From: a virus
Reading direction: 5' to 3' (one strand)
DNA length: 64,000 nucleotides
IMG/VR virus record: IMGVR_UViG_3300013136_000003
Span: 23,382 to 87,381 of that record
Shown: positions 1,382 to 63,991 of the stretch, one piece after another
How positions within the stretch are numbered: the stretch's first letter is position 1
Layout: the number at the start of each line of letters is the position of its first letter
The notes under the pieces: model-generated
What the model was told of the DNA's origin: nothing
What the model saw: the letters and a program-made list of their open reading frames with translations, nothing else
Databases searched by the model: none
Translations under genes and position numbers: made by a program

Positions 1382-2437
1382 ATGAAAACATTGTACGCAT
1401 ACTTCGGCGAATTTGGAATCTTCGATCAGAACATTCCAGGTCATTCCTTTTACCAGATCGGCTTGTTATCTTCAATCGCCGAAACGTACGACATCAAAAA
1501 GTTCGATGTTTACAATTATTTGGACGGAGATACAGTTGAACCTAACCTTGGGCCAAAATACCCAGACGGAAAAATAGGAGAACTAATGCAGTCCGTAACC
1601 GACCAGCTTGTCGATTCGTACAGAATACCATTGAACCACGTTATGAAGAACATAGCAAACGGAAAAGTGTACGATTACATCATCCTAAAAGCAAGGTTTA
1701 GAAACTTATCAACTCTTGCAAAAAAGATGGAAGATGCGAAACGGTTTGAGCTGATAATACAGTATGCGTTATCGACTGGGCATAAGCCTGAAAACATAAT
1801 AGTTCTCGATACAGACCTGTCAATGAGTCCAGGCGTGTCAAAACGACTAACTGATCTTAAGATTCAGGTGCTAGTTCCGTCAATTAATTTTCCAGGAATA
1901 GGCAGAGCTTTTTTGAAAGAGTGTTTGCAGATTCACAGAGAACGTTCGGTAAAAAAAGAACAATCTATCGTTTATCACGGAAACATTGATTTTTCCAACT
2001 ACAAGGAAGGCCATTCAAAGAATCCTATCGTTCATGAGATAATCGGAGCGGTGAATCACGAGTTCATGTTCGATCAGTCAGTGTTTCACATGTTCCTGTG
2101 TGCAAAAGATACCCAAGAACTCGTGGCTACCTTGACTGATATGCCAAGAGTTACGCTGGTTCCACGAAACGATAGAGCCTCCATCTGGAAGCACCTCAGT
2201 GAATCAATAGTTTCATTGACCGTTAGCAAGGATCTCTACTTGGAGCGCGGGTTCATTCCTGCAAGAGTTTATGAAGCGATCATTGCTGGTACAATCCCAG
2301 TTTCTTACAAAGCGGGTCAACACCCAGCTATGACATTTGAAACCAGTTCACAGTTTTACGAAATTTGCAAGTTCTTAGCTGAGTGTTCACCGGTTGATTA
2401 CTACAAGATCCTGGAAACTATCGCGAAAAAACTTTAA
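1382..2437 (+). CDS. Putative glycosyltransferase-like protein
   Basis: C-terminal 'IVYHGN...FIPARVYEAIIAGTIPV' resembles GT-B/phage glucosyltransferase C-domains; ATG at 1382 preferred. Confidence 0.45.
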   Translation: MKTLYAYFGEFGIFDQNIPGHSFYQIGLLSSIAETYDIKKFDVYNYLDGDTVEPNLGPKYPDGKIGELMQSVTDQLVDSYRIPLNHVMKNIANGKVYDYIILKARFRNLSTLAKKMEDAKRFELIIQYALSTGHKPENIIVLDTDLSMSPGVSKRLTDLKIQVLVPSINFPGIGRAFLKECLQIHRERSVKKEQSIVYHGNIDFSNYKEGHSKNPIVHEIIGAVNHEFMFDQSVFHMFLCAKDTQELVATLTDMPRVTLVPRNDRASIWKHLSESIVSLTVSKDLYLERGFIPARVYEAIIAGTIPVSYKAGQHPAMTFETSSQFYEICKFLAECSPVDYYKILETIAKKL

Positions 2438-12185: not shown

Positions 12186-13313
12186 ATGAACACTAACGTG
12201 TACAACATTGACGCGATTGCTGTTGAAAACGGCATAGAACGATACTGGGACTACGTCAAGAAGAATAATCCAGCGAACGATAAACCGTATCATAACTTTT
12301 GGCACACAAGCTGTGTTGTGAATTACTGTAACGAGATAGCTGAGGACGAAGAGCTTGACGGTCTTTCAAAAAAGAAGCTTCTCCTAGCTGCTATGTTTCA
12401 CGATTTTGCGCACCACTCAAAGGACGATGCTCGAAACGTAACCGTGGCTAAGGAAATGTTCAAAATCGCTACGTACATTCTTGAACCGAACCTCTACAAT
12501 ACGCCGGACTTCGGCCGATTGATCATGGACGTTTGCAACATAATTGATGCTACAAAGTACCCGTACGCAGTTCCAGAAGATCGACTGACTCTAAGCCAAA
12601 AAGTTATACGAGATGCTGACCTGCTACAGTGGACGGAAGCAACTATCACCGAACACACTTTTGCTGGGCTAGCAAAGGAAATGGAGATTCCTCTGACCAT
12701 GTTCCTGCCAAAGAACAAACAGTTCATTCTTAACATCAAGTACCACACCGAGTGGGCAAATCACAGAGCAAGCATCATGCTTCCTCACCAACTTGAAAAG
12801 CTTGAAGTGTTCGAAAAGATGATAGCTGAACTCGGTCACAAGCGCATCGTTCTAGTTGCTAGGGCTGCTTCTAGAAAAGATTTTTTACGAAACAAATTCG
12901 AAGCTCGAGGTTTCAAACCATCCATCAGCATCACAAACCGGCCTCCAAGACCAGGAGAAATAGAAGGTAAGGATTACTTCTTCATCACGGAATCGAAAGC
13001 CGAGCAGATGATAGAGAACGACGAGTTCTACGAGTACGTTAGGTTCAACACCTGGCTTTACGGAACGACAAAGAAACAATTCATGGAAGATGACGTTTTC
13101 ATCATGACGCCTGCCGGAGTTTCAAAGATTCAACCTGAAGACAGAAAGAGTTGTTTCATCATTTACTTGGACATACCAGAAGACACACGAAAGCTCAGAC
13201 TTCTTCAGAGACAGATGCCAGGAGATACGGTTGACCGACGAATAGAGGCCGACGAGGAAGATTTTCGAAATTTCAAGGATTACGACATGCGGGTAACTAA
13301 TCCAGATTTCTAA
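12186..13313 (+). CDS. HD-domain phosphohydrolase fused to guanylate-kinase-like domain
   Basis: PYHNFWH...AAMFHDF...IRDADL; C-domain T.RPPRPGEIEGKDYFF, WLYGT; P-loop reads ARAASRK. Confidence 0.8.
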   Translation: MNTNVYNIDAIAVENGIERYWDYVKKNNPANDKPYHNFWHTSCVVNYCNEIAEDEELDGLSKKKLLLAAMFHDFAHHSKDDARNVTVAKEMFKIATYILEPNLYNTPDFGRLIMDVCNIIDATKYPYAVPEDRLTLSQKVIRDADLLQWTEATITEHTFAGLAKEMEIPLTMFLPKNKQFILNIKYHTEWANHRASIMLPHQLEKLEVFEKMIAELGHKRIVLVARAASRKDFLRNKFEARGFKPSISITNRPPRPGEIEGKDYFFITESKAEQMIENDEFYEYVRFNTWLYGTTKKQFMEDDVFIMTPAGVSKIQPEDRKSCFIIYLDIPEDTRKLRLLQRQMPGDTVDRRIEADEEDFRNFKDYDMRVTNPDF

Positions 13314-16261: not shown

Positions 16262-16882
16262 ATGAAATTAGTAAAAATATACGTTCTTAAAGATCCAAAA
16301 ACAGACGAAGTTCAATATGTCGGTAGGTCAACTCAACCCGATACTAGGTATCGTCAACACATTTATTTAGCAAGAAAGCCAGGTAAAAAAGACATAAAGA
16401 CCGCATGGATTCGAAGTTTGCTTGATGAAAATCAAAAACCGGTACTTGAAATAATTGACGAATGCGATCAATTTGACGCTCAAATTAGAGAAACTTATTG
16501 GATCGGCGAATATAAAAAACTGGGAAATCTTAAAAATCAACGAGATTTTGTAGAAAATGGGTATTTATTTTCTGAAGAAAGTCGAAAGAAAATGTCAGAG
16601 TCAGCTAAAGGAAATACTAATACTAGAGGTAAAAAAAGATCAGCTGAACAGGCATATCGGTGTGGTAATGCAAATAGAGGAAAACATAAATCAATAGAAT
16701 CTATATTAAAAGTAAGTAAACCAATTTTTCAATTAACTATTGAAAATGTATTAATCTGTGAATGGTCATCTCAGAAGGAAGCAGCAAAGACCTTGTCAAT
16801 AAATCAAAGAAATATTTCATCGGTTTGTAATGGGATTAGACAAACCGCCGGTGGATATAAATGGAAATTCAAAAATACCTAA
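16262..16882 (+). CDS. GIY-YIG homing endonuclease with NUMOD3/NUMOD1-like domains
   Basis: IYVLKDP...YVGRS..P..R...H; SEESRKKMSES; NISSVCNG.RQTAGGYKWKF; AT-rich. Confidence 0.85.
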   Translation: MKLVKIYVLKDPKTDEVQYVGRSTQPDTRYRQHIYLARKPGKKDIKTAWIRSLLDENQKPVLEIIDECDQFDAQIRETYWIGEYKKLGNLKNQRDFVENGYLFSEESRKKMSESAKGNTNTRGKKRSAEQAYRCGNANRGKHKSIESILKVSKPIFQLTIENVLICEWSSQKEAAKTLSINQRNISSVCNGIRQTAGGYKWKFKNT

Positions 16883-16886
16883 AATT

Positions 16887-17534
16887 ATGCGTTTTGTTTC
16901 TATAGACATCGAAACTACTGGGTTAGACCCAGAAACCTGCCAGATCCTTCAGATCGGAGCAGTTATCGAAGACACTCTAAACGTGAAGCCCACCTCGGAA
17001 CTTCCGTCCTTTTCGTGCATCATCGATCACCAAACAATAACAGGCCGGCCATTTGCTCTCAACATGAACAACTGGATCATGAAGATCCTTGCTTCTTTGG
17101 AAACAGCGTCTAAGGAAGAACGTGCTGAGATAAGAAAATCGAATCACATCATGGGAGAAGGCTTAGTGGCCAGAGCACTTTACGAGTGGTTAAGAGGTCA
17201 AGGAATTCACCCAAGAGCCGATTCGAAGACTGAACAAGTGAACATAAACGTTGCTGGCAAAAACTTTGCCACGTTCGATAAACTTTTCCTAGAAAAGCTT
17301 CCTAGCTGGTCAAGCTTCATCCAAGTCAACCAGAGGATAATCGATCCAGGCATTATCTTCACAGATTGGCAAACCGACGAAAAACTTCCGAGTTTGGGAG
17401 TTTGCATGAAGAGAATTGGAGTAGACGGAGAAGTCACTCACGATGCTGTGCAAGATGCAATCGACGTGATTCGCGTGATTCGTAAGGTGACATCGGACTA
17501 TCAGAACGTTCTGTATCTGAGTCCGAATAGATAA
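16887..17534 (+). CDS. DEDDh 3'-5' exonuclease (DnaQ/oligoribonuclease-like)
   Basis: SIDIETTGLD, GKNFATFD, HDA..DA; ATG at 16887. Confidence 0.9.
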   Translation: MRFVSIDIETTGLDPETCQILQIGAVIEDTLNVKPTSELPSFSCIIDHQTITGRPFALNMNNWIMKILASLETASKEERAEIRKSNHIMGEGLVARALYEWLRGQGIHPRADSKTEQVNINVAGKNFATFDKLFLEKLPSWSSFIQVNQRIIDPGIIFTDWQTDEKLPSLGVCMKRIGVDGEVTHDAVQDAIDVIRVIRKVTSDYQNVLYLSPNR

Positions 17535-18339: not shown

Positions 18340-18431
18340 AGCCAGCTCTTAGGTACGTCTATCATATTCACTGAGTGTTAATTGCAAGAAGTTTTCTGGT
18401 TGTTTTTGAATAAATAAAAACAAAAATCACC

Positions 18432-18989
18432 ATGAAGAAATTATTGTTTTTGGTAGCTTTTGTTCTGCTAGCTATTAGCTGCGAAAAAGAACAAACGCCA
18501 GAACAGATCCTACCGAAACCTACACAGGTTTCGCAAATCGAATTAGATGCGGGTTATACACAGTACGTTCTTCCGAACATTACGCTAACTCAGCTAAAAG
18601 CTGGCAACGGCAATGGAAATGGAAACAACCCAAGAGTAGATAACGGTATTAGAATCGTTTGGGATTCAAATCTCAACAACGGAACCTCGCCAGATGGTCC
18701 AATTTACTTGGAAGAAGGAGAGAACATGCAGTTGAGCATCGAATGGTTGGCTGATGAAATTCCAGGAGCAACTGTAAATTGGTACACAAACGATCAGCAA
18801 GTAGCTAGTGTAAATTGGTTGGGCGTGCTATCTGAATCCTGGATAGGTTCTTGGTACCCAGGTTATTCGACAGTAACGGTTATTACAGCAGTCATTTACC
18901 GCCCGAAACCTAATTACAACGGACCACACCCATGGAACGGTTGGCTTCAGCCTTACCAAGATAACGTCGTCGTACACATCGTTCCATAA
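18432..18989 (+). CDS. Lipoprotein (possible Ig-like Big_2 segment)
   Basis: MKK-hydrophobic-ISC lipobox; VNWYTNDQQVASV..G; ATAAATA upstream. Confidence 0.7.
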   Translation: MKKLLFLVAFVLLAISCEKEQTPEQILPKPTQVSQIELDAGYTQYVLPNITLTQLKAGNGNGNGNNPRVDNGIRIVWDSNLNNGTSPDGPIYLEEGENMQLSIEWLADEIPGATVNWYTNDQQVASVNWLGVLSESWIGSWYPGYSTVTVITAVIYRPKPNYNGPHPWNGWLQPYQDNVVVHIVP

Positions 18990-19058
18990 TTTTTTACTGA
19001 AGAAAAACCGATTGATAAGATCATAGTATATTATCAACCTAAGTTCTTAAACATTTTG

Positions 19059-19474
19059 CGTTCGGTAGAGGAATCAGGAAGTCATGAGCCTGGTTCTAGT
19101 GCGTGCCAGAACAACCTGTATTGCAAAAGCAGGTAATGGCTCGAGCTAGGGGGATGCCCCACATGCAATGAAAAAGGCGGCCAAGCGGTCGGCATGAACT
19201 GTCTAACCAGCAGAGCTTGAGGTTTCGATCAGATACTTAAATGGTATCTTGCAAACGACGTACGGGTATACAAGATCCCCGTCTTGTGGCCGAATAATTT
19301 TCGTTGCGTGAAATAAGGCACGCAGTTTGTTGTGGTGACACAGCAGCGGTTCATGGAGCAGCTAACCTGCTTTGAGCTGCCCTCGACAGAGGGAACTGAT
19401 GGTCGTCGTACACACTTGCAGCGCAACATCGAACTGGAGGTAAAACCTAACCCTTCCGTACGTTCTACTGAGCG
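19059..19474 (+). ncRNA. Large structured non-coding RNA, family unrecognised
   Basis: 12-bp terminal stem 19059-19070/19463-19474; many internal helices; upstream promoter motif and boxA-like AAGTTCTTAAACAT; terminator directly after; no credible ORF. Confidence 0.75.
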
Positions 19475-19479
19475 ATATT

Positions 19480-19551
19480 AAACCGGCCACAGTGCCGGTT
19501 TTTTTATGCGACTCGCGCTGCACAAAAAAAAGCCGGACTGGCCGGCTTTTA
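19480..19551. terminator. Two back-to-back intrinsic terminators (one per strand)
   Basis: AAACCGGC-CACAGT-GCCGGTTTTTTT and AAAAAAAAGCCGG-ACTGG-CCGGCTTTT. Confidence 0.8.
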
Positions 19552-19568
19552 AGTTCGGTTGGTAGAAG

Positions 19569-19769
19569 TTACTCCTCCAAAACGCTCATGATCTTTGATT
19601 CCTGAACGCTCTCGATAAAGCACGGAGAGATTCCATGAGAGAAACGCTTTAACGCTTTGTCTTCTGCATCTCCGACCGAGTCGGCATCCACCAAGTGTTG
19701 TTCTTTCACTTTCTTGACCTTTCCGTTTTCCTGGTCAACTTCAAATCTGATTTTTACTAAGTAGTACAT
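19569..19769 (-). CDS. DUF4494-like protein
   Basis: YLVKIRF....ENGKVKKVKEQHLVDA.S..DAE...SV.ESKI..V, typical of Bacteroidota. Confidence 0.75.
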   Translation of the reverse strand: MYYLVKIRFEVDQENGKVKKVKEQHLVDADSVGDAEDKALKRFSHGISPCFIESVQESKIMSVLEE

Positions 19770-19983
19770 TGTTCTTCGATTTTGTTTGCTTATTTTACTA
19801 GAGCTGTGCCCTAGGTTTCATTTATTTATCCAGACAGCCAGACTAACCTAGGATCCCACAGGAGACCCCCAGACCTCATCCTACTGAGAAGTCACTGTGT
19901 AACACATCTTCAGTATGCGCACACGCCTGAGCCCTCTAACGAATCGTAAACTTCAATCGACTTTTTAGTACAATTTAAAGATT

Positions 19984-20640
19984 ATGAAAGTTAGAGAAGA
20001 ATTGATTTACGAACCAGACAAGACCTGGTTCATCAGCGATACCCACTTCGGACACGATAACGTGCTGAAGTTTGAAGCAGGGTACCACAATTTTGCAAAC
20101 ATCGAGGATCACGACAAAACGATCGTCGCAAATTGGTTTGCAACAGTTTACGATGACGATACTGTATTTTTCTTGGGCGATGCTTCTATGCCAAGAGTTA
20201 AATTGGACTACGTTAGAAGCATCTTTGCTCAGCTTCCAGGGAAGATAGTGTGGGTGACAGGAAATCACGATTATCACATCGATGATTTTTGGAAGAAAGA
20301 ACTGATCAGAGTAGCAAACATAGTGGAATTCACGAGCTACAAAGAAATTTTTATCAAGTGCAAGGAACGGACAAACTATCCGCACGGTTACGATTTTCTT
20401 CGGCACATCGTTCTGTTTCACTACCCTATCGCAGAATTTAACGGCTCCTTTAGGGACACGTTTCACGTGTACGGTCACACGCACGAAAATTTGTACCCGA
20501 TAAAGAACGCCTACACAGCTACTGCATGTTTAACTGGTTACAAACCGGTGAATTATGCATGGCTTGCTGAAAAAATAGCCGAACACAATGAAGGACTTGA
20601 TAGACCTGGGAAACCAAGTATTCAACGTTTTAAAGGATAA
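19984..20640 (+). CDS. Calcineurin-like metallophosphoesterase
   Basis: SDTHFGH, FLGD, GNHD, LFHYP, YGHTH. Confidence 0.9.
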   Translation: MKVREELIYEPDKTWFISDTHFGHDNVLKFEAGYHNFANIEDHDKTIVANWFATVYDDDTVFFLGDASMPRVKLDYVRSIFAQLPGKIVWVTGNHDYHIDDFWKKELIRVANIVEFTSYKEIFIKCKERTNYPHGYDFLRHIVLFHYPIAEFNGSFRDTFHVYGHTHENLYPIKNAYTATACLTGYKPVNYAWLAEKIAEHNEGLDRPGKPSIQRFKG

Positions 20641-22191: not shown

Positions 22192-23516
22192 GCAGTAGGA
22201 ATTGCTGGTGGGTTGATAGTTCCGCCAGCTAAGACGCGTTTTACGCCGTCACCTGTTCCCCAGGTTCTAAGATCTGGGCAATCTGCCAATTGTTGAGCAG
22301 TCACTGAATCATTCCTAAGAAGAGCTAACAGTCTAGCGTAGTACGGGAGTTTTAGAGTAGCAACCGTTGCTGCTAACCCGGCCGCTGGATTTGGATATTC
22401 CTTAACCCCAGCCGAACTGTAATTTCTAATTCCTTTAATTTTCAACTTTTTGGTAGTGTTGAACGGATTGTAGTCTGCTTGACCTCCTTCGGCTTGACGC
22501 CATGCTTTTAAGAACTTCATCTTTTCTGGAGTTTCGTTAGTACCAAGCATTCTAAGAATTGCTCTGTAGAAATTATCATCATTAACAGATCCGCCTACCA
22601 CCACGTCTGCTCCACCGATAGTAGCGTACTTCGAAAGTTCTTCCTTTCCGAAACCTTTGTTTTGTAAGTTAGCAATCAGTCGCTTGACCAAACCGCCATC
22701 GATCAGCGATATTCCAGGAGAACCAGCGGGTTCTCCAGCTGACTGTTTTGCTGCTGACAGACTTGATTTGTGTTCCCAATGCCAGGGTTCTCTCGGTATG
22801 CTGGTAAACCCGTAATTCTTAGCGTTAGTGTTCATCCAAGCTTGAGCTTTAGCGTCCAACTTTAAGTCCAAGGCTGCACCCCAACCATGGTTGGAAGTTC
22901 CAGGAACGGCAGCGTACCCGCCTTGGTTGTATAGGCCCTTTTCCTTTGCCACTTGAACTTGCTGATCGTAATTTCTGTAAGAGTCTGTGATCTGCCAAGT
23001 TACACCATCTTCGGCGGCAGCCTTGACCATTTTTTCATAGTCTTCTTTCGCTTCTTTGTTAAGTCTGTGGTGAGTTTCTCCGTGACCAGGAGTAGAAATA
23101 GTTTCAAGATCGTTTGTACCAAGCCGGCCGTTTTGCGCTTCACCTACTAGTTCTGAAAAACTCTTGAAATTTACAAGAGATTCGTCCGCCGGTTGGTTAG
23201 ATTTAGTAGCAGAGTTAAAATTAGCAATGGCATTTGCTGTTTCTGGGCCAAAGTAACCGTCCACACCGTGTTTTGGCATCTTAAAACCTAGGAAATCCAA
23301 GCCTGCTTGAATTTTCTTGACGAGATCCGAGTACTGCATGTTACCTTTTGACTGAACGGTGATAGTTTTTCCAGAGTTGGCAAAATCCTCGAGCTCAGAA
23401 TAGAATTCCTTATCGTTGGCGGAAAGACCTTTAGTTTCGTCCTTTTTTCCTCTTAACCAATCCCAAAAACCGCCCTCGTTCATCTGCTTTTCAAAATCGT
23501 CGAAGTTCTTTACCAT
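22188..23516 (-). CDS. Multidomain peptidoglycan hydrolase (PG-binding + M15/VanY peptidase + lysozyme-like C-domain)
   Basis: VDGYFGPET; SYR.YDQQ, AA.PGTSNHGWG.A.D, EPWHWE; AWRQAEGG...NPFNTT; N-terminal tag MVKNFDDF. Confidence 0.85.
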   Translation of the reverse strand: MVKNFDDFEKQMNEGGFWDWLRGKKDETKGLSANDKEFYSELEDFANSGKTITVQSKGNMQYSDLVKKIQAGLDFLGFKMPKHGVDGYFGPETANAIANFNSATKSNQPADESLVNFKSFSELVGEAQNGRLGTNDLETISTPGHGETHHRLNKEAKEDYEKMVKAAAEDGVTWQITDSYRNYDQQVQVAKEKGLYNQGGYAAVPGTSNHGWGAALDLKLDAKAQAWMNTNAKNYGFTSIPREPWHWEHKSSLSAAKQSAGEPAGSPGISLIDGGLVKRLIANLQNKGFGKEELSKYATIGGADVVVGGSVNDDNFYRAILRMLGTNETPEKMKFLKAWRQAEGGQADYNPFNTTKKLKIKGIRNYSSAGVKEYPNPAAGLAATVATLKLPYYARLLALLRNDSVTAQQLADCPDLRTWGTGDGVKRVLAGGTINPPAIPTA

Positions 23517-39255: not shown

Positions 39256-40137
39256 ATGAAACAACTGAAGATCTCAAGGTTACTGACGGATTCTGAGAAG
39301 ACCGAAACTTTGAACCGTTACTTGAAGGACGTTAAGGAGCTTAGTTTCGCGCTGACCGCGGAAGAAGAAGCTAGCTTGGCGAGAAGGATAAGAGCAGGAG
39401 ACAGAACAGCTCTCAACGAGCTGGTCAACTCCAACCTCCGGTTCGTGATAAGCGTAGCAAACCAGTACAGCGCGTACGCTTCGCTTGAGGACTTGATAAA
39501 CGAGGGCAACCTCGGCCTGATCAAGGCTGCTGAAAGGTTTGACGAATCAAGAGGAGTGAAGTTCATATCCTACGCTGTCTGGTGGGTAAGGGACAGCATC
39601 GTTCGTTACGTGGCTCAAGTCCACCCGATCGTCAGAGTACCGTTCGTAAAGAGCAACGACTCTTTCAAGTACCGAACGGCTGAACGCTTGCTCGAGCAAG
39701 CTTTCGAAAGAAAACCGACCGTGTCAGAGATAGCAGAATCCCTGAGCTTGATCTCAGGAAAGAAGTACTCTGACTCGTACGTTGAAGTACTGGCGGAGAC
39801 GGCAAACCAGGCCAGAGTCTCGATAACCGACGCGTTCGACTTCGAGCTGGAGCTAGATACCGACGTCGAAGGAGCGGTCAGTATTCCAGAACCAGCGGAA
39901 GAGACCAGCCCGCAGGTTACCGTTCGTCGCGAGCTGCTCAACAGCTTGAAGAAGTTGGACGATCGTGAACGTTACATCGTGACAGAGTTCTTCGGCCTAG
40001 CTGGAGAAGCCAAGACCTTGGAACAGATAGGTCAGTACTTGGGAATATCAAGGGAACGAGTTCGCCAGCTGAGAAACGAGACTCTTCTCAAGCTGAGAGA
40101 GACGGTCAGCGAAGAGTTCAGGTTCTTTGAATCCTAA
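39256..40137 (+). CDS. Sigma-70 family factor (RpoD/SigA-like, regions 1.2-4)
   Basis: LNRYLKDV, NLRFVISVA..Y, DLINEGNLGLIKAAERFD..RG.KFISYAVWW.R, TLEQIG..LGISRERVRQ. Confidence 0.95.
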   Translation: MKQLKISRLLTDSEKTETLNRYLKDVKELSFALTAEEEASLARRIRAGDRTALNELVNSNLRFVISVANQYSAYASLEDLINEGNLGLIKAAERFDESRGVKFISYAVWWVRDSIVRYVAQVHPIVRVPFVKSNDSFKYRTAERLLEQAFERKPTVSEIAESLSLISGKKYSDSYVEVLAETANQARVSITDAFDFELELDTDVEGAVSIPEPAEETSPQVTVRRELLNSLKKLDDRERYIVTEFFGLAGEAKTLEQIGQYLGISRERVRQLRNETLLKLRETVSEEFRFFES

Positions 40138-42824: not shown

Positions 42825-42965
42825 ATTTTTTCCTTTCAAAAGTTATTGTTAAATTAGCAATCTCAATACTAGAGATATGAGATCCAACAAGATAATTTTT
42901 TCCTTTCAAAAGTTATTGTTAAATTAGCAATCTCAATACTAGAGATATGAGATCCAACAAGATAA
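42825..42965 (+). repeat. Perfect 70-bp tandem duplication containing early promoter and first codons of HDAC gene
   Basis: ATTTTTTCCTTTCAAAAG...ATGAGATCCAACAAGATA occurs at 42825 and 42895. Confidence 0.95.
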
Positions 42966-44122
42966 AAGTATTTTACAACCCGAAGCAAGTCCTATCAGCG
43001 GACGCGAAAAAGAACTTCAGCAAGAGCCCGCTCAAGCCGAAGCTTCTGCTCGATCATTTAGCTGATAACGGGTTGGCTGACCACTTGACCATGGTCAGTA
43101 ACTTCAGACCGTACAATGCTTACGATTTTCAGATAGCCCACACGGTCGAGTACGTCAACTCTTTCTTCAAGGGCGGTTACTTAGCTTCGACCAACGGCCT
43201 GGCTTGGAGCCAGCAGTTCGCTGACTCTGTTAGGTACACGAACGCCAGCCTGTGGGAAGCTATAAAGAACTCCCTAGTAAACCCTGACGAGGTAAGCTTC
43301 AGCCCGACCAGCGGGTTCCACCACGCTCGTCCGAACAAGGGTTCAGGGTTCTGCACGTTCAGCGGGCAGGTCATAGCGAGCGTCAAGGCTTACCGCAAGT
43401 TCGGAGCGGTTGGCTGCTACATAGACTTGGACGGACACTTCGGCAACAGCCTCGAAGATTCCCGGTACTTCCAGCCTGACCTCAACGAGGCAGTACCTGT
43501 TGGATTCAATTTTAACTCGCGCCTGCAGGGAGAAGCTTACTACAAGGATTTAACCAACTTCGTTTTAAAGAGACTAACTCCTGCCATAATCAACGGCGAG
43601 ATCGATTACGTGGTGTGGTGCCACGGAGCTGACAGCCACGAGTGGGACCAGCTCGGCTACCAGGTAAATACCGAACAGTGGGTACGCTGCTCCAAGTTCT
43701 TCTGGACGTGGGTGAAGGAGATGGACCAGGCTCTGGGCCGCCCGCTCTCCGTAGTAGCTTCCCTATTCGGTGGTTACAGGTCGGACGATTACGATTCGGT
43801 CTTAAGCCTCCACGCTAGCGACTTACGCGAGTGCATGAACTGCTTGCTCGGCTTGGACGTCTACTACGAGACAGACGTTAAGCCTGCTCCGAAGAGAGAC
43901 TACTTCAACACTCACAGAGACTTCTACGTCGGCCGGACCGAGGGGTCAACCATAGACCGTAGTCTCTACCGTCCTTCCACTGATCGCGGGACGAGACTCT
44001 CCGACCAAGCCATGCTCGACATCAGGAGAAAGGAATGGGAAAGAGAACGCGACCGCCAGAACGAGGAGGAGTTCGAGAAGTACTACGCTCTGAGACAGAA
44101 GTTAAACGGCAGGTCAGAGTAG
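42947..44122 (+). CDS. Histone deacetylase (Zn-dependent HDAC/AcuC) family protein
   Basis: AHT.EYV, GFHHA....GSGFC.F, DLDGHFGNS, HGADSH..D.LG, GGY. Confidence 0.9.
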   Translation: MRSNKIKVFYNPKQVLSADAKKNFSKSPLKPKLLLDHLADNGLADHLTMVSNFRPYNAYDFQIAHTVEYVNSFFKGGYLASTNGLAWSQQFADSVRYTNASLWEAIKNSLVNPDEVSFSPTSGFHHARPNKGSGFCTFSGQVIASVKAYRKFGAVGCYIDLDGHFGNSLEDSRYFQPDLNEAVPVGFNFNSRLQGEAYYKDLTNFVLKRLTPAIINGEIDYVVWCHGADSHEWDQLGYQVNTEQWVRCSKFFWTWVKEMDQALGRPLSVVASLFGGYRSDDYDSVLSLHASDLRECMNCLLGLDVYYETDVKPAPKRDYFNTHRDFYVGRTEGSTIDRSLYRPSTDRGTRLSDQAMLDIRRKEWERERDRQNEEEFEKYYALRQKLNGRSE

Positions 44123-61717: not shown

Positions 61718-63991
61718 TTGCCTGAAGAATTTCCAAACGATTTAACGAACAGGAGAATAGCTGACACCTACCAGAACGTGGTACAAGTAGTCGGTGGAAC
61801 CTTTTACGATGGCTTGGGAAACGAAATCGCACCGCCAGGCGGAGGAACTTCAGGATCTTCAGGTACGTCTGGCTCGTCAGGAAGCTCAGGAACTTCAGGT
61901 TCATCCGGAACAAGCGGAGAAGCTGGTAGCTCAGGAACTTCAGGTTCTTCTGGAACAAGTGGATCTTCAGGTTCTTCTGGAACAAGTGGATCTTCAGGTT
62001 CTTCTGGAACAAGCGGAGACTCAGGTTCGAGCGGTAGTTCGGGAACAAGCGGTTCGTCTGGAAGCTCAGGCTCTTCGGGTTCAAGCGGTAGTTCGGGAAC
62101 AAGCGGTTCGTCTGGAAGCTCTGGATCTTCAGGTTCAAGCGGTTCAAGCGGAAGCTCTGGCACAAGCGGTTCAAGCGGAAGCTCTGGTACAAGCGGTTCA
62201 AGCGGAAGCTCTGGTTCGTCTGGTAGTTCGGGAACAAGCGGTTCGTCTGGAAGCTCAGGAACATCGGGAACTGGATCTTCGGGAACATCTGGAAGCTCAG
62301 GCTCAAGCGGTTCGTCTGGAAGCTCAGGCTCTTCGGGTTCAAGCGGTAGTTCGGGAACAAGCGGTTCGTCTGGAAGCTCTGGATCTTCGGGTTCAAGCGG
62401 TAGTTCGGGAACAAGCGGTTCGTCTGGAAGCTCAGGAACATCGGGAACTGGTTCATCTGGAACGTCTGGAAGCTCAGGCTCTTCAGGTTCAAGTGGAACG
62501 TCTGGAAGCTCAGGCTCTTCAGGTTCAAGTGGAACGTCTGGAAGCTCAGGCTCTTCAGGTTCAAGCGGAACGTCTGGAACTGGTTCATCTGGAACGTCTG
62601 GAACATCTGGTGGTGGATCATCTACTAGACAAATTTCTCTTGTCACCAACTTAGCTAATGCAGGAGACACTGGTACTATCAACCAGACTCTAGTTGGAAT
62701 AGGGTACTCTGGAACTATCAGCGGTTGGCACCTCACTTGCTACCCTTCTGCATCAGTCACTGTGGATGTCTGGAAAGTCTCTGGAGCGGTACCGCCAGTT
62801 GCTAACACAATAACAGCATCAGCTAAACCCTCAATATCGTCCAACCGTCTAAACTCTAGTTCAACTCTTACTGGATGGACAACATCTGTCTCAGCTAACG
62901 ATTATTTCATGATGAACGTCGATTCGAATACGGCTGCGACATACATTAACTTGCAACTAATAATAACGTACGGTGCGTTGTTGAATCAAGGCCTCGATGC
63001 AACACTCACATCTACAGGCACAGGTGCAGGTGTGTCAACCTTGAGATTGGAAGTCAGCGAAAATCAAACGCTTACAATCACATCAGGTAATGCACGCTTT
63101 TACACAGATGCAGCCGGGACTTTAGGTGAATCAACAACGTGGGATGTAACAACAGGTGCGCTCAGGACTATCTATTTAAAAGCGCCATCTGGCGAAAGTG
63201 TGTTGAATATTCCGAAGCCTGGCAAAGTTATAGAATTAGGCAATAGCACAACAGATGGCTGGATAAGTTCGACAAATGCCGCACGGTTAAGCATAGAAAT
63301 AGGTAAACTTGCGCTGACACAATTACGCATTGCAGGTACGTCAACACTAACAGGTGCATTGCCGACTGGATTGACTTCATTGACTTTGTACGGTAATTCA
63401 ATCGCATGGACTTATGCAGGTGCATTGCCAAGTGGATTGACTTACTTGCTTTTAGAAGGAAATCTAATCGCATGGACTTACAATGGTGCATTGCCTATTG
63501 GGTTGACTACCCTTTATTTGAACGGTAATTCAATCGCATGGACTTATACAGGTGCATTGCCAACTGGATTGACTTTCTTGTGTTTATCTGGAAATCTAAT
63601 CGCATGGACTTACAATGGTGCATTGCCAACTGGATTGACTTTCTTGTATTTATACGGAAATCTAATCGCATGGACTTATACAGGTTCATTGCCAACTGGA
63701 TTGACTTACTTGACTTTGTCAGGCGACTCAATTGCATGGACTGGATTAGATGTAGGCAATAATGGTAATATAGTAACATTCAACCTTGCAAACTACCGCA
63801 TAACTAAAATGTCAAGTGCTGACATGGTTACACTGTTAACTCAACTAACTAACCGCACAGGCTCACTACCTGCAACTATCACAATCAACGATTACGCTGA
63901 TTATGCAAGCCCGCCGGCTGAGGTAACAGCAGCCGTAGCAGCATTAAAGGCAGCAAAACCAAATATCACAACTGTAACTCTGGGGGCATAA
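61718..63991 (+). CDS. Fibre/adhesin-like protein with (GSS/GTS)n linker and C-terminal leucine-rich repeats
   Basis: ~255 aa of SGSSGTSG repeats (61845-62615); six 22-aa repeats ALPTGLTxLxLxGNxIAWTYxG; TTG start uncertain. Confidence 0.8.
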   Translation: MPEEFPNDLTNRRIADTYQNVVQVVGGTFYDGLGNEIAPPGGGTSGSSGTSGSSGSSGTSGSSGTSGEAGSSGTSGSSGTSGSSGSSGTSGSSGSSGTSGDSGSSGSSGTSGSSGSSGSSGSSGSSGTSGSSGSSGSSGSSGSSGSSGTSGSSGSSGTSGSSGSSGSSGSSGTSGSSGSSGTSGTGSSGTSGSSGSSGSSGSSGSSGSSGSSGTSGSSGSSGSSGSSGSSGTSGSSGSSGTSGTGSSGTSGSSGSSGSSGTSGSSGSSGSSGTSGSSGSSGSSGTSGTGSSGTSGTSGGGSSTRQISLVTNLANAGDTGTINQTLVGIGYSGTISGWHLTCYPSASVTVDVWKVSGAVPPVANTITASAKPSISSNRLNSSSTLTGWTTSVSANDYFMMNVDSNTAATYINLQLIITYGALLNQGLDATLTSTGTGAGVSTLRLEVSENQTLTITSGNARFYTDAAGTLGESTTWDVTTGALRTIYLKAPSGESVLNIPKPGKVIELGNSTTDGWISSTNAARLSIEIGKLALTQLRIAGTSTLTGALPTGLTSLTLYGNSIAWTYAGALPSGLTYLLLEGNLIAWTYNGALPIGLTTLYLNGNSIAWTYTGALPTGLTFLCLSGNLIAWTYNGALPTGLTFLYLYGNLIAWTYTGSLPTGLTYLTLSGDSIAWTGLDVGNNGNIVTFNLANYRITKMSSADMVTLLTQLTNRTGSLPATITINDYADYASPPAEVTAAVAALKAAKPNITTVTLGA

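Follow-up and report, generated by a model that had tools for sequence, protein, structure and literature searches.

Two manA-type units in one phage RNA: a probably free-standing and interlocked double form

The manA RNA was described as a riboswitch candidate from marine metagenomes, T4-like cyanophages and two gamma-proteobacteria, where it lies in potential 5' untranslated regions (UTRs) (Weinberg et al. 2010, PMC2864571), and the same account is repeated in a cyanophage paper of 2023 (PMC9964418). Rfam types the family (RF01745) as cis-regulatory, and its structure was corrected in Rfam 14 (PMC7779021). According to a cryo-electron microscopy preprint of July 2026 (10.64898/2026.07.01.735769), single manA RNAs of less than 200 nt assemble in vitro into an icosahedral cage of 60 subunits and into decamers and octamers, built from pentamers that kissing loops and a GNRA-receptor contact hold together. 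In the preprint, manA remains a putative cis-regulatory element, and 'tandem' occurs nowhere in the text. In this work, we describe an element of ~400 nt at positions 19059-19474 (+) of a 64,000-nt stretch of phage DNA (IMG/VR record IMGVR_UViG_3300013136_000003, positions 23,382 to 87,381; hereafter the window). It is, in our judgement, very probably a manA-type double unit.

Two homologous domains in one transcript are familiar from the tandem glycine riboswitch, in which two homologous aptamer domains dock on each other. The window RNA shares with tandem riboswitch aptamers the presence of two homologous structured domains in one transcript; however, it has neither an expression platform overlapping the fold nor a regulated gene, and it is a discrete abundant species. 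Another group for comparison is formed by ROOL and GOLLD, large RNAs associated with phages or prophages that multimerise into cages made only of RNA (introduction of 10.64898/2026.07.01.735769). Like them, the window RNA is several hundred nt long, ornate, phage-associated and probably free-standing, and its building block is reported to form closed RNA-only assemblies, but it has no sequence or structure match to them and a different fold, and its assembly is a proposal by analogy. The strand-exchanged RNA dimers of the EGFOA variant in the same preprint also have helices completed by the strand of the partner unit, although there the exchange takes place between two molecules, whereas in the window RNA it would take place between covalently joined units of another family.

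An Rfam scan of the whole window at gathering scores gave 0 matches, which accounts for the 'unrecognised family' of the sequence-only reading. That assignment was overturned by a sub-threshold search, in which RF01745 matched at 19071-19292 (+) (unit A, 52.2 bits, E 2.3e-12, model positions 1-192) and again at 19263-19464 (+) (unit B, 37.2 bits, E 2.1e-8, full model 1-192); against the whole 87-kb record, the E-values were 5.9e-14 and 1.6e-9, respectively. The two matches overlap by 30 nt, and the terminal hairpin of unit A serves as the first hairpin of unit B (shared hairpin, 19262-19282). Paired overlapping matches were present in 5/5 homologue records searched, with 40-54 bits for unit A and 34.9-40.4 bits for unit B, and unit A of the close relative L003 reached 56.3 bits, above the RF01745 gathering score of 55.2 bits. 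The same model gave 0 matches in 14 control genomes. By Rfam's own rule, the element at 19059-19474 (+) is a divergent manA-type variant and not a member of RF01745, both window matches lying below the gathering score. In an Rfam search of 18900-19700 at E up to 10, everything beyond manA was a weak chance match. ROOL, GOLLD, other large ornate RNAs, RNase P RNA, tmRNA and the known ribozyme families gave no match (window at gathering score; 18900-19700 at E<=10), and ARAGORN found no tRNA or tmRNA in the window, in agreement with the earlier exclusion of RNase P RNA and tmRNA. The suggestion of a ROOL/GOLLD-like RNA or a ribozyme was close in spirit in its first half, as manA forms RNA-only cages according to the 2026 preprint, and nothing supports the second.

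The likeness to manA goes beyond these scores. Each half of the window RNA aligns across the whole 192-position model with a significant E-value. The blocks GUG-C-GAA(U/C)AA and UAA-GG flank the first hairpin as in manA, the three-hairpin junction has a loop of the ACCA type in unit A and GUGGUG in unit B, and the terminal hairpin carries an 11-nt GGGUA...CC-type loop. A pseudoknot between a loop and downstream letters and the occurrence in phages are shared as well. There are also differences. The window RNA carries two units in a chain of ~400 nt rather than one of ~190 nt, its enclosing helix and long stem are formed between the units, and it has gained a closing helix, a first hairpin with a large invariant loop and its own terminator, with no gene to regulate in 3/7 sequences. 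Moreover, RNAs of this type come from lake, sludge, digester and wastewater samples, in contrast to the marine cyanophages and pelagiphages of classical manA. The novelty is therefore that of a fused, interlocked, stand-alone form of a known kind, and such a form was not found in print, where the additional files of Weinberg et al. 2010 and Tables S2-3 of the preprint might show double units.

For homologues, pattern scans of IMG/VR and JGI contigs were followed by nhmmer, which gave full-length homologues on 12 further contigs and, with the window, 7 distinct sequences. All of them lie in one syntenic block consisting of an exonuclease gene, 2-3 small genes, the RNA, a convergent 66-aa gene, a 119-aa gene and thymidylate synthase. 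Between the same most distant phages, the mean column identity of the RNA is 78%, compared with 35-63% for the neighbour proteins.

The + strand of 19059-19474 folds at -157.7 kcal/mol (z -5.20), and 0/100 dinucleotide shuffles were as stable, whereas the - strand gave a z of -0.54, with 27/100 shuffles as stable; this fold and the terminator behind it place the RNA on the + strand. Helices were derived from the column pairs complementary in all 7 sequences (alignment of 439 columns), merged into one structure and then counted. MAFFT misplaces gaps in three variable hairpins, and those pairs were left out of the count and checked by single-sequence folds. The resulting structure holds 109 pairs in 20 helices, and 99.1% of its 762 cells are standard pairs. 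Two-sided changes were found in 40 pairs, compared with a shuffle mean of 27.7 and 0/500 shuffles reaching 40, and the covariation score was 0.496 against 0.262 in shuffles. When the partners were slid by 1-3 columns, pairing fell to 39.9-45.0% and two-sided changes to 2-7 pairs. The dense structure claimed for this RNA from its letters alone is thus borne out by the fold and by covariation on homologues.

The covariation also bears on the view that there is no RNA element here, only a small protein gene or chance complementarity. Stop-free - strand frames of 46-94 codons speak for it, but their frame and place differ between homologues, indels between homologues fall at hairpin tips, and neither the 40 two-sided compensatory pairs nor a - strand fold no better than shuffles fits it. 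Within 19059-19474, we found no credible gene, the open frames being short, overlapping and spread over both strands, and no open frame is conserved across the RNA homologues. A coding reading was rejected for want of such a frame, and we give this view as a whole a practically negligible probability.

Within the fold, the ends are joined by a closing helix, H0 (19059-19069 with 19464-19474, +), of 11 pairs, in which all lettered cells are paired and 4 pairs are two-sided; it had been drawn with 12 bp, and the twelfth pair belongs to the next hairpin. This hairpin, P0 (19070-19097, +; 8 pairs, 5 two-sided changes), is stacked on H0, and its 10-nt loop is an invariant AGUCAUGA in 7/7 sequences, which includes the palindrome UCAUGA (19081-19086). 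The local helices known from manA, namely the first hairpin with internal loops, the three-hairpin junction and the terminal hairpin, are all 100% paired. Helices 4-8 of unit A and 12, 13, 15-17 and 19 of unit B carry 1-6 two-sided changes each, with the exception of helix 16, and the terminal hairpins are paired throughout but are invariant or show one-sided changes only. The junction of unit A (19141-19220, +; stem 19141-19147/19214-19220; loops GAUG, AAGC and CUAACCA) has 6 two-sided pairs among the 7 of its stem, and its hairpins have 2 and 3. In the junction of unit B (19323-19398, +; stem 19323-19327/19394-19398; loops GUGA, CUAAC and GACA), 4 of the 5 stem pairs are two-sided, as are 4/5 in the third hairpin. 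Many further loop and junction letters are invariant among the 7 sequences.

A pseudoknot is formed in unit B, between loop 19303-19309 (GUUGCGU) and 19421-19427 (GCGCAAC) on the + strand. It pairs in 46/49 cells, with 2 two-sided and 4 one-sided pairs, and occurs in three unrelated complementary sequence versions. Unit A has in its place a palindromic loop, UUGCAA (19121-19126, +), which is complementary to another UUGCAA further along the chain (19249-19254). The two copies occur in 7/7 sequences; the loop copy reads UUGUAA in 3/7 and pairs there via G-U, with no two-sided change. On sequence grounds, this match is a candidate pseudoknot or between-molecule contact.

The sequence-only reading had predicted a pseudoknot as well, formed by two crossing long-range pairs. 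The RNA does have one, at another place: the crossing version is unsupported because one of its arms, CATGAACTG/CGGTTCATG (55/63 cells), conflicts with two helices that pair in 7/7 sequences. All 24 strings that it named occur where it put them, with AAGTTCTTAAACAT at 19041, and 6 of its 12 helices are supported by the homologues, the other 6 being unsupported or displaced by better-supported ones. Besides the closing helix, ACCTG/CAGGT, TGTTGTG/CACAGCA (49/49 cells) and CCCTC/GAGGG (35/35) hold, as does the hairpin AGATAC/GTATCT, which varies in length, forms in the single-sequence folds of 4/7 and is weak in the L052 group; the long-range ACGACG/CGTCGT pairs in 38/42 cells, and its inner 5 pairs in 35/35. 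GTTCT/AGAAC (16/35 cells), ACAAGA/TCTTGT (28/42) and GCAGCT/AGCTGC (26/42) pair incompletely in the homologues, TGCGTG/CACGCA (36/42) conflicts with a covarying hairpin and the pseudoknot, and GAGCC/GGCTC pairs in 33/35 cells, yet overlaps three fully paired helices.

A distinctive property of the fold is that the two helices which in manA are closed inside one unit, the enclosing helix and the long stem, are formed here between the units. The enclosing helix P1 joins 19099-19103 of unit A to 19457-19461 at the 3' end of unit B (+; 35/35 cells, 1 pair two-sided and 2 one-sided changes), while the alternative within unit A, 19099-19103/19283-19287, pairs in 28/35 cells. The long stem is exchanged in both directions. 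Strand a (19224-19229) pairs with b' (19428-19433) in 42/42 cells with 2 two-sided pairs, and a' (19256-19260) pairs with b (19404-19408) in 35/35 cells with 1 two-sided and 1 one-sided change, all on the + strand; the latter stem is the core of the ACGACG/CGTCGT pair mentioned above. Closed within the units, the long stem would pair in only 37/49 cells (unit A) and 27/49 (unit B), and the four within-unit alternatives to the between-unit helices together read 28/35, 37/49, 27/49 and 6/35 cells. A plain tandem of two self-contained manA folds was rejected on this poorer within-unit pairing, and we regard it as probable that the units are truly interlocked rather than merely placed side by side.

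The signals around the fold are those of a transcription unit. A -10-like box, TATATT (19027-19032, +), is visible in the sequence as a candidate promoter element, and boxes of this kind (TATAAT, TATAAA or TACAAT in the homologues) stand ~17-50 nt before the closing helix in 7/7 sequences, so that the RNA would have a promoter of its own. Of the promoter motif announced in the sequence-only reading, only this box is to be seen. An inverted repeat, TTGATAA-12 nt-TTATCAA (19012-19037, +), encloses TATATT and could be operator-like; one of its arms differs in L003. Elsewhere, the window encodes a phage sigma factor (39256-40137, +; PHROG 351, E 1.3e-48), which may explain why few sigma-70 promoters were found. 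Between box and fold lies a leader motif, AAGTTCTTAAACAT (19041-19054, +; core GTTCTT(T)AA), 7-10 nt before the closing helix, which had been called boxA-like; it occupies the same relative place in 7/7 homologues, with the core intact in 6/7. Its RNA core, GUUCUU(U)AA, presumably resembles the boxA of rRNA, an antitermination signal bound by NusB/NusE. Elsewhere in the window, the motif is about as frequent as expected (53 matches at <=1 mismatch, 50.6 expected), and GTTCTTWAA as a phage-wide promoter motif was rejected for this lack of enrichment. Behind the fold, 5 nt after the closing helix, an intrinsic terminator follows (19480-19508, scan site 19480-19501, +) with an 8-bp stem, 5 G-C pairs and a T run, as predicted; in 7/7 homologues, 5-8 nt separate the closing helix from a G+C-rich hairpin with a T run, whose stem sequences differ. 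The locus is closed on the right by the terminator (19528-19550, -) of the 66-aa gene (19569-19769, -), which is conserved and convergent in all lineages.

This arrangement has to be compared with that of a tandem riboswitch or attenuator, in which two manA aptamers would sense a ligand jointly and set the read-through at 19480-19508. The riboswitch-candidate status of manA (PMC2864571) and its cis-regulatory type in Rfam agree with such a role, and so do the classical single copies, which in P-SSM2 and Pelagibacter phage Mosig lie 16-24 nt before a same-strand gene; in the window RNA itself, the terminator sits directly behind the fold, and small same-strand ORFs follow in the L004 and L052 lineages. 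However, the RNA of the window, L003 and L005 faces a convergent gene, which has its own terminator in between, and in the window lineage no same-strand gene follows the RNA before the convergent unit, so that the position in a potential 5' UTR typical of manA is not found here. The terminator lies outside the conserved fold, no alternative pairing of fold and terminator was found, the closing helix seals the fold, and RNA contigs end at the fold end at very high depth. The downstream ORFs of the L052 type have their own TATAAT after the terminator. We consider joint regulation by two aptamers improbable.

Single manA copies in the compared phages gave 184.1 bits in P-SSM4, 181.6 in P-SSM2 and 64 in Mosig, and an RF01745 search of Syn9 found no copy. 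In Mosig (L263, MT647606.1), the copy at 108164-108371 (-) is unannotated, exceeds the cut-off and lies in the gap before a putative rubrerythrin gene. In P-SSM4 (L270, AY940168.2), the manA at 164829-165014 is overlapped by an annotated hypothetical CDS, PSSM4_169.1 (164884-165057), which is probably a spurious ORF call. A cyanophage-like contig (L256, IMGVR_UViG_3300048007_000150) holds a single manA-like RNA at 1501-1699 (-) with 52.1 bits, below the cut-off. A TTGACC/TATATT site resembling a promoter precedes it and a terminator follows immediately, and upstream of it are a tRNA, a glutamine riboswitch and a 50-aa ORF; with these flanks, free-standing single manA-type units therefore exist too.

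On the upstream side, the question is whether the RNA could be the processed 3' end of the preceding mRNA, kept as a nuclease-resistant structure and lacking its own promoter. In the window, this mRNA would come from a 185-aa gene (18432-18989, +) on the same strand, with 70 nt between its end and the fold; moreover, the scan yielded no promoter, and the RNA contigs begin within the closing helix, as processing would leave them. The 185-aa gene, which has no Pfam or PHROG family, is nevertheless present only in the window and L003, and a search with its protein found only one near-identical contig; in other lineages, the RNA directly follows small conserved genes. In L052, L049 and L242 (3/7 sequences), a conserved 368-aa gene (58-67% identity) lies upstream in the opposite orientation, yet the RNA, the leader motif and the -10-like boxes are kept, and therefore the RNA cannot be the tail of an upstream message there. 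Together with a depth in one metatranscriptome (X21, below) ~350 times that of the upstream gene, this makes an origin from the preceding mRNA very improbable. The 368-aa gene (L250 8774-9880 (-); homologues in L260 and L242) has no PHROG family, and it is 58-67% identical while the RNAs are nearly identical.

The transcript itself was sought in four metatranscriptome runs from four studies, whose contigs were compared with 18800-19700. The contigs are mostly 95-99% alike to the window, and near the RNA they cover only ~19070-19470: X21 runs over 19070-19470 (425-nt contig, depth 5817.7), X19 over 19075-19457, X22 over 19075-19226 and 19269-19468, and X20 over 19251-19468, with a further ~90%-alike piece over 19092-19276 at a depth of 14153.6. 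Stretches free of RNA contig cover (19017-19047, 19482-19543 and others) are no evidence by themselves. In X21, the upstream gene (18801-18977) has a depth of 16.5 and the downstream gene (19573-19697) of 4.8, ~350-fold and ~1200-fold below the RNA, a gap that DNA carry-over does not explain. Judged from contigs, the RNA accumulates far above the neighbouring mRNAs. The X21 contig has sequencing-adapter letters directly before 19070, and 19059-19069 is free of RNA contigs, which hints weakly at a removal of the leader together with the 5' strand of H0. The large, independently expressed phage non-coding RNA with its own terminator that had been read from the letters is thus upheld by the RNA contigs and by the divergent upstream gene in one lineage. 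Because the upstream gene is divergent in one lineage and no same-strand gene follows in the window lineage, a free-standing abundant RNA rather than a cis-regulator is highly probable, and with the family assignment we hold a free-standing manA-type double RNA to be very well supported.

Taking these results together, we propose that 19059-19474 (+) would be the gene for one ~400-nt non-coding RNA in which two manA-type units are fused head to tail and locked together. Each unit would keep its local parts, i.e. the GUG-C-GAA-AA hairpin, the three-hairpin junction and the terminal hairpin with its 11-nt loop, while the two long-range manA helices would be built between the units, the long stem by strand exchange (a with b', a' with b), and the extra closing helix would clamp both RNA ends. 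Transcription would start from the -10-like box, pass through the short conserved leader and end at the intrinsic terminator with no control of a downstream gene, and the leader may then be trimmed off along with the 5' strand of H0, of which the contigs give a weak hint. By analogy with manA, the RNA may act as a covalent pseudo-dimer that assembles with its own copies, for which the palindromic invariant loops UCAUGA and UUGCAA are candidate symmetric between-molecule contacts. As a whole (an interlocked manA double unit with its own gene that assembles), we consider this explanation reasonably likely. For self-assembly in the infected cell taken alone, we are more doubtful than confident.

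The assembling double unit must be set against a free-standing monomer with no higher-order assembly, which might be a ribozyme or might sequester a protein of the host or phage as a decoy or sponge, for example a nuclease, an RNA-binding protein or a defence sensor. The same evidence of a stable, abundant and independent RNA would suit such a monomer, as would the many invariant loop and junction letters, and the units satisfy each other's long-range helices in one chain, which could replace between-molecule contacts. On the other hand, the conserved adjacency suggests no protein partner, and no known ribozyme family was matched in the searches above. Symmetric RNA-RNA contacts account more readily for the two palindromic loops that never vary, and the parent manA fold is reported to assemble (10.64898/2026.07.01.735769). 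We therefore think a non-assembling monomer rather unlikely.

Several points weigh against the explanation that we favour. At 52.2 and 37.2 bits, the window units fail the gathering score of RF01745, and apart from L003, 0/5 of the further homologue records exceed it. The covariation set, although it counts 7 distinct sequences, represents ~4-5 lineages, the structure was drawn from the same sequences on which it was tested, so that the slid control is biased in its favour, and one of five measures, further pair types, was not above shuffles (84 against 85.2, with 352/500 as high). The rival long-range pair CATGAACTG/CGGTTCATG might be an alternative state or a contact, given its 55/63 cells. 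A sigma-70 scan found no + strand promoter in 18400-20200, and past the terminator the L004 and L052 lineages have two small ORFs on the same strand, where read-through control is possible. The RNA data are assembled contigs and not reads, with neither strand nor true ends, and their depth is a rough level and a poor measure of expression. Finally, the assembly reported in one preprint concerns single units of less than 200 nt in vitro, and its extension to the window RNA is pure analogy.

As to the phages, the homologue records are fragments of 25-128 kb; their completeness according to CheckV is 29-46% for the larger ones (78-128 kb), and that of the 87-kb window record is 32%, and therefore the phages would be of roughly 270 kb. 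A public-run index points to lake water as the likely source, and DNA and RNA runs from sludge, digester, wastewater and sediment also hold parts. A blastn search of 19000-19560 against 50,697 deposited phage records gave no match; a tblastn search of a 776-aa protein against deposited phage records gave none either, and because of this no cultured relative or host was found. Two scans of the genomes of 185,579 species returned no full-length homologue (0 stretches, then 12, with one 28-nt partial match at E 0.004) and no prophage or host lead. In the contig scans, the pattern TGGAGGTAAANCCTA occurred in at least 116 stretches, mostly by chance, with 4 full-length homologues by nhmmer among those listed, and AGTCATGA...GGGATGCC in 114, again mostly by chance, with 1 full-length homologue. 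A terminal-hairpin pattern gave 30 stretches, 19 of which were not homologues; 0/19 of these hold manA at the gathering score, and 1 of the 5 whose records were searched at E 0.01 showed a single manA-like match. A metagenome scan added one new contig, and its match L258 was rejected as chance.

The neighbours of the RNA are small proteins of no assigned family. Further upstream, a 206-aa homing-endonuclease-like ORF (16262-16882, +; PHROG 314, HNH and GIY-YIG matches) runs into the beginning of the exonuclease gene (16830-17534); L003, although 94-98% identical, matches no more than the last 42 residues of this ORF, which therefore looks like a recent mobile insertion. Downstream, a phosphoesterase gene (19984-20640, +; PHROG 547) is intact in the window and L005, while in L003 (4554-4824) only residues 1-61 and 187-218 match and most of the gene is deleted. 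Unusual cargo of the window includes an HD-domain/guanylate-kinase fusion (12186-13313, +), a histone-deacetylase-domain protein (42947-44122, +) and a 757-aa collagen-repeat protein with an FNIP repeat (61718-63991, +).

The manA family has been an orphan 'cis-regulatory / riboswitch candidate' since 2010, and the cages reported in 2026 came with no known biological setting. At this locus, a manA-type RNA appears as a stand-alone, terminator-bounded and, judged from contigs, extremely abundant transcript, and the fusion of two units with exchanged long-range helices argues that unit-to-unit contacts are under selection. The family extends past marine cyanophages to giant phages of lakes, sludge and digesters, and the Rfam threshold misses such forms. 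The locus is a reason to re-type the family, and 19070-19470 or 19059-19474 can serve as a construct in assembly and probing experiments. The boldest version of our proposal, which we rate as doubtful, is a covalent, strand-swapped manA dimer made in very large amounts by giant phages and assembling into RNA-only shells or rings in the infected cell, with an rRNA-like biogenesis in which a boxA-like leader that safeguards the transcription of an RNA without translation, an H0 processing stem that is cut away and a dedicated terminator would take part. If it were true, the whole manA family would be structural RNAs of phages and not riboswitches, and the cages seen in vitro would gain a biological counterpart.

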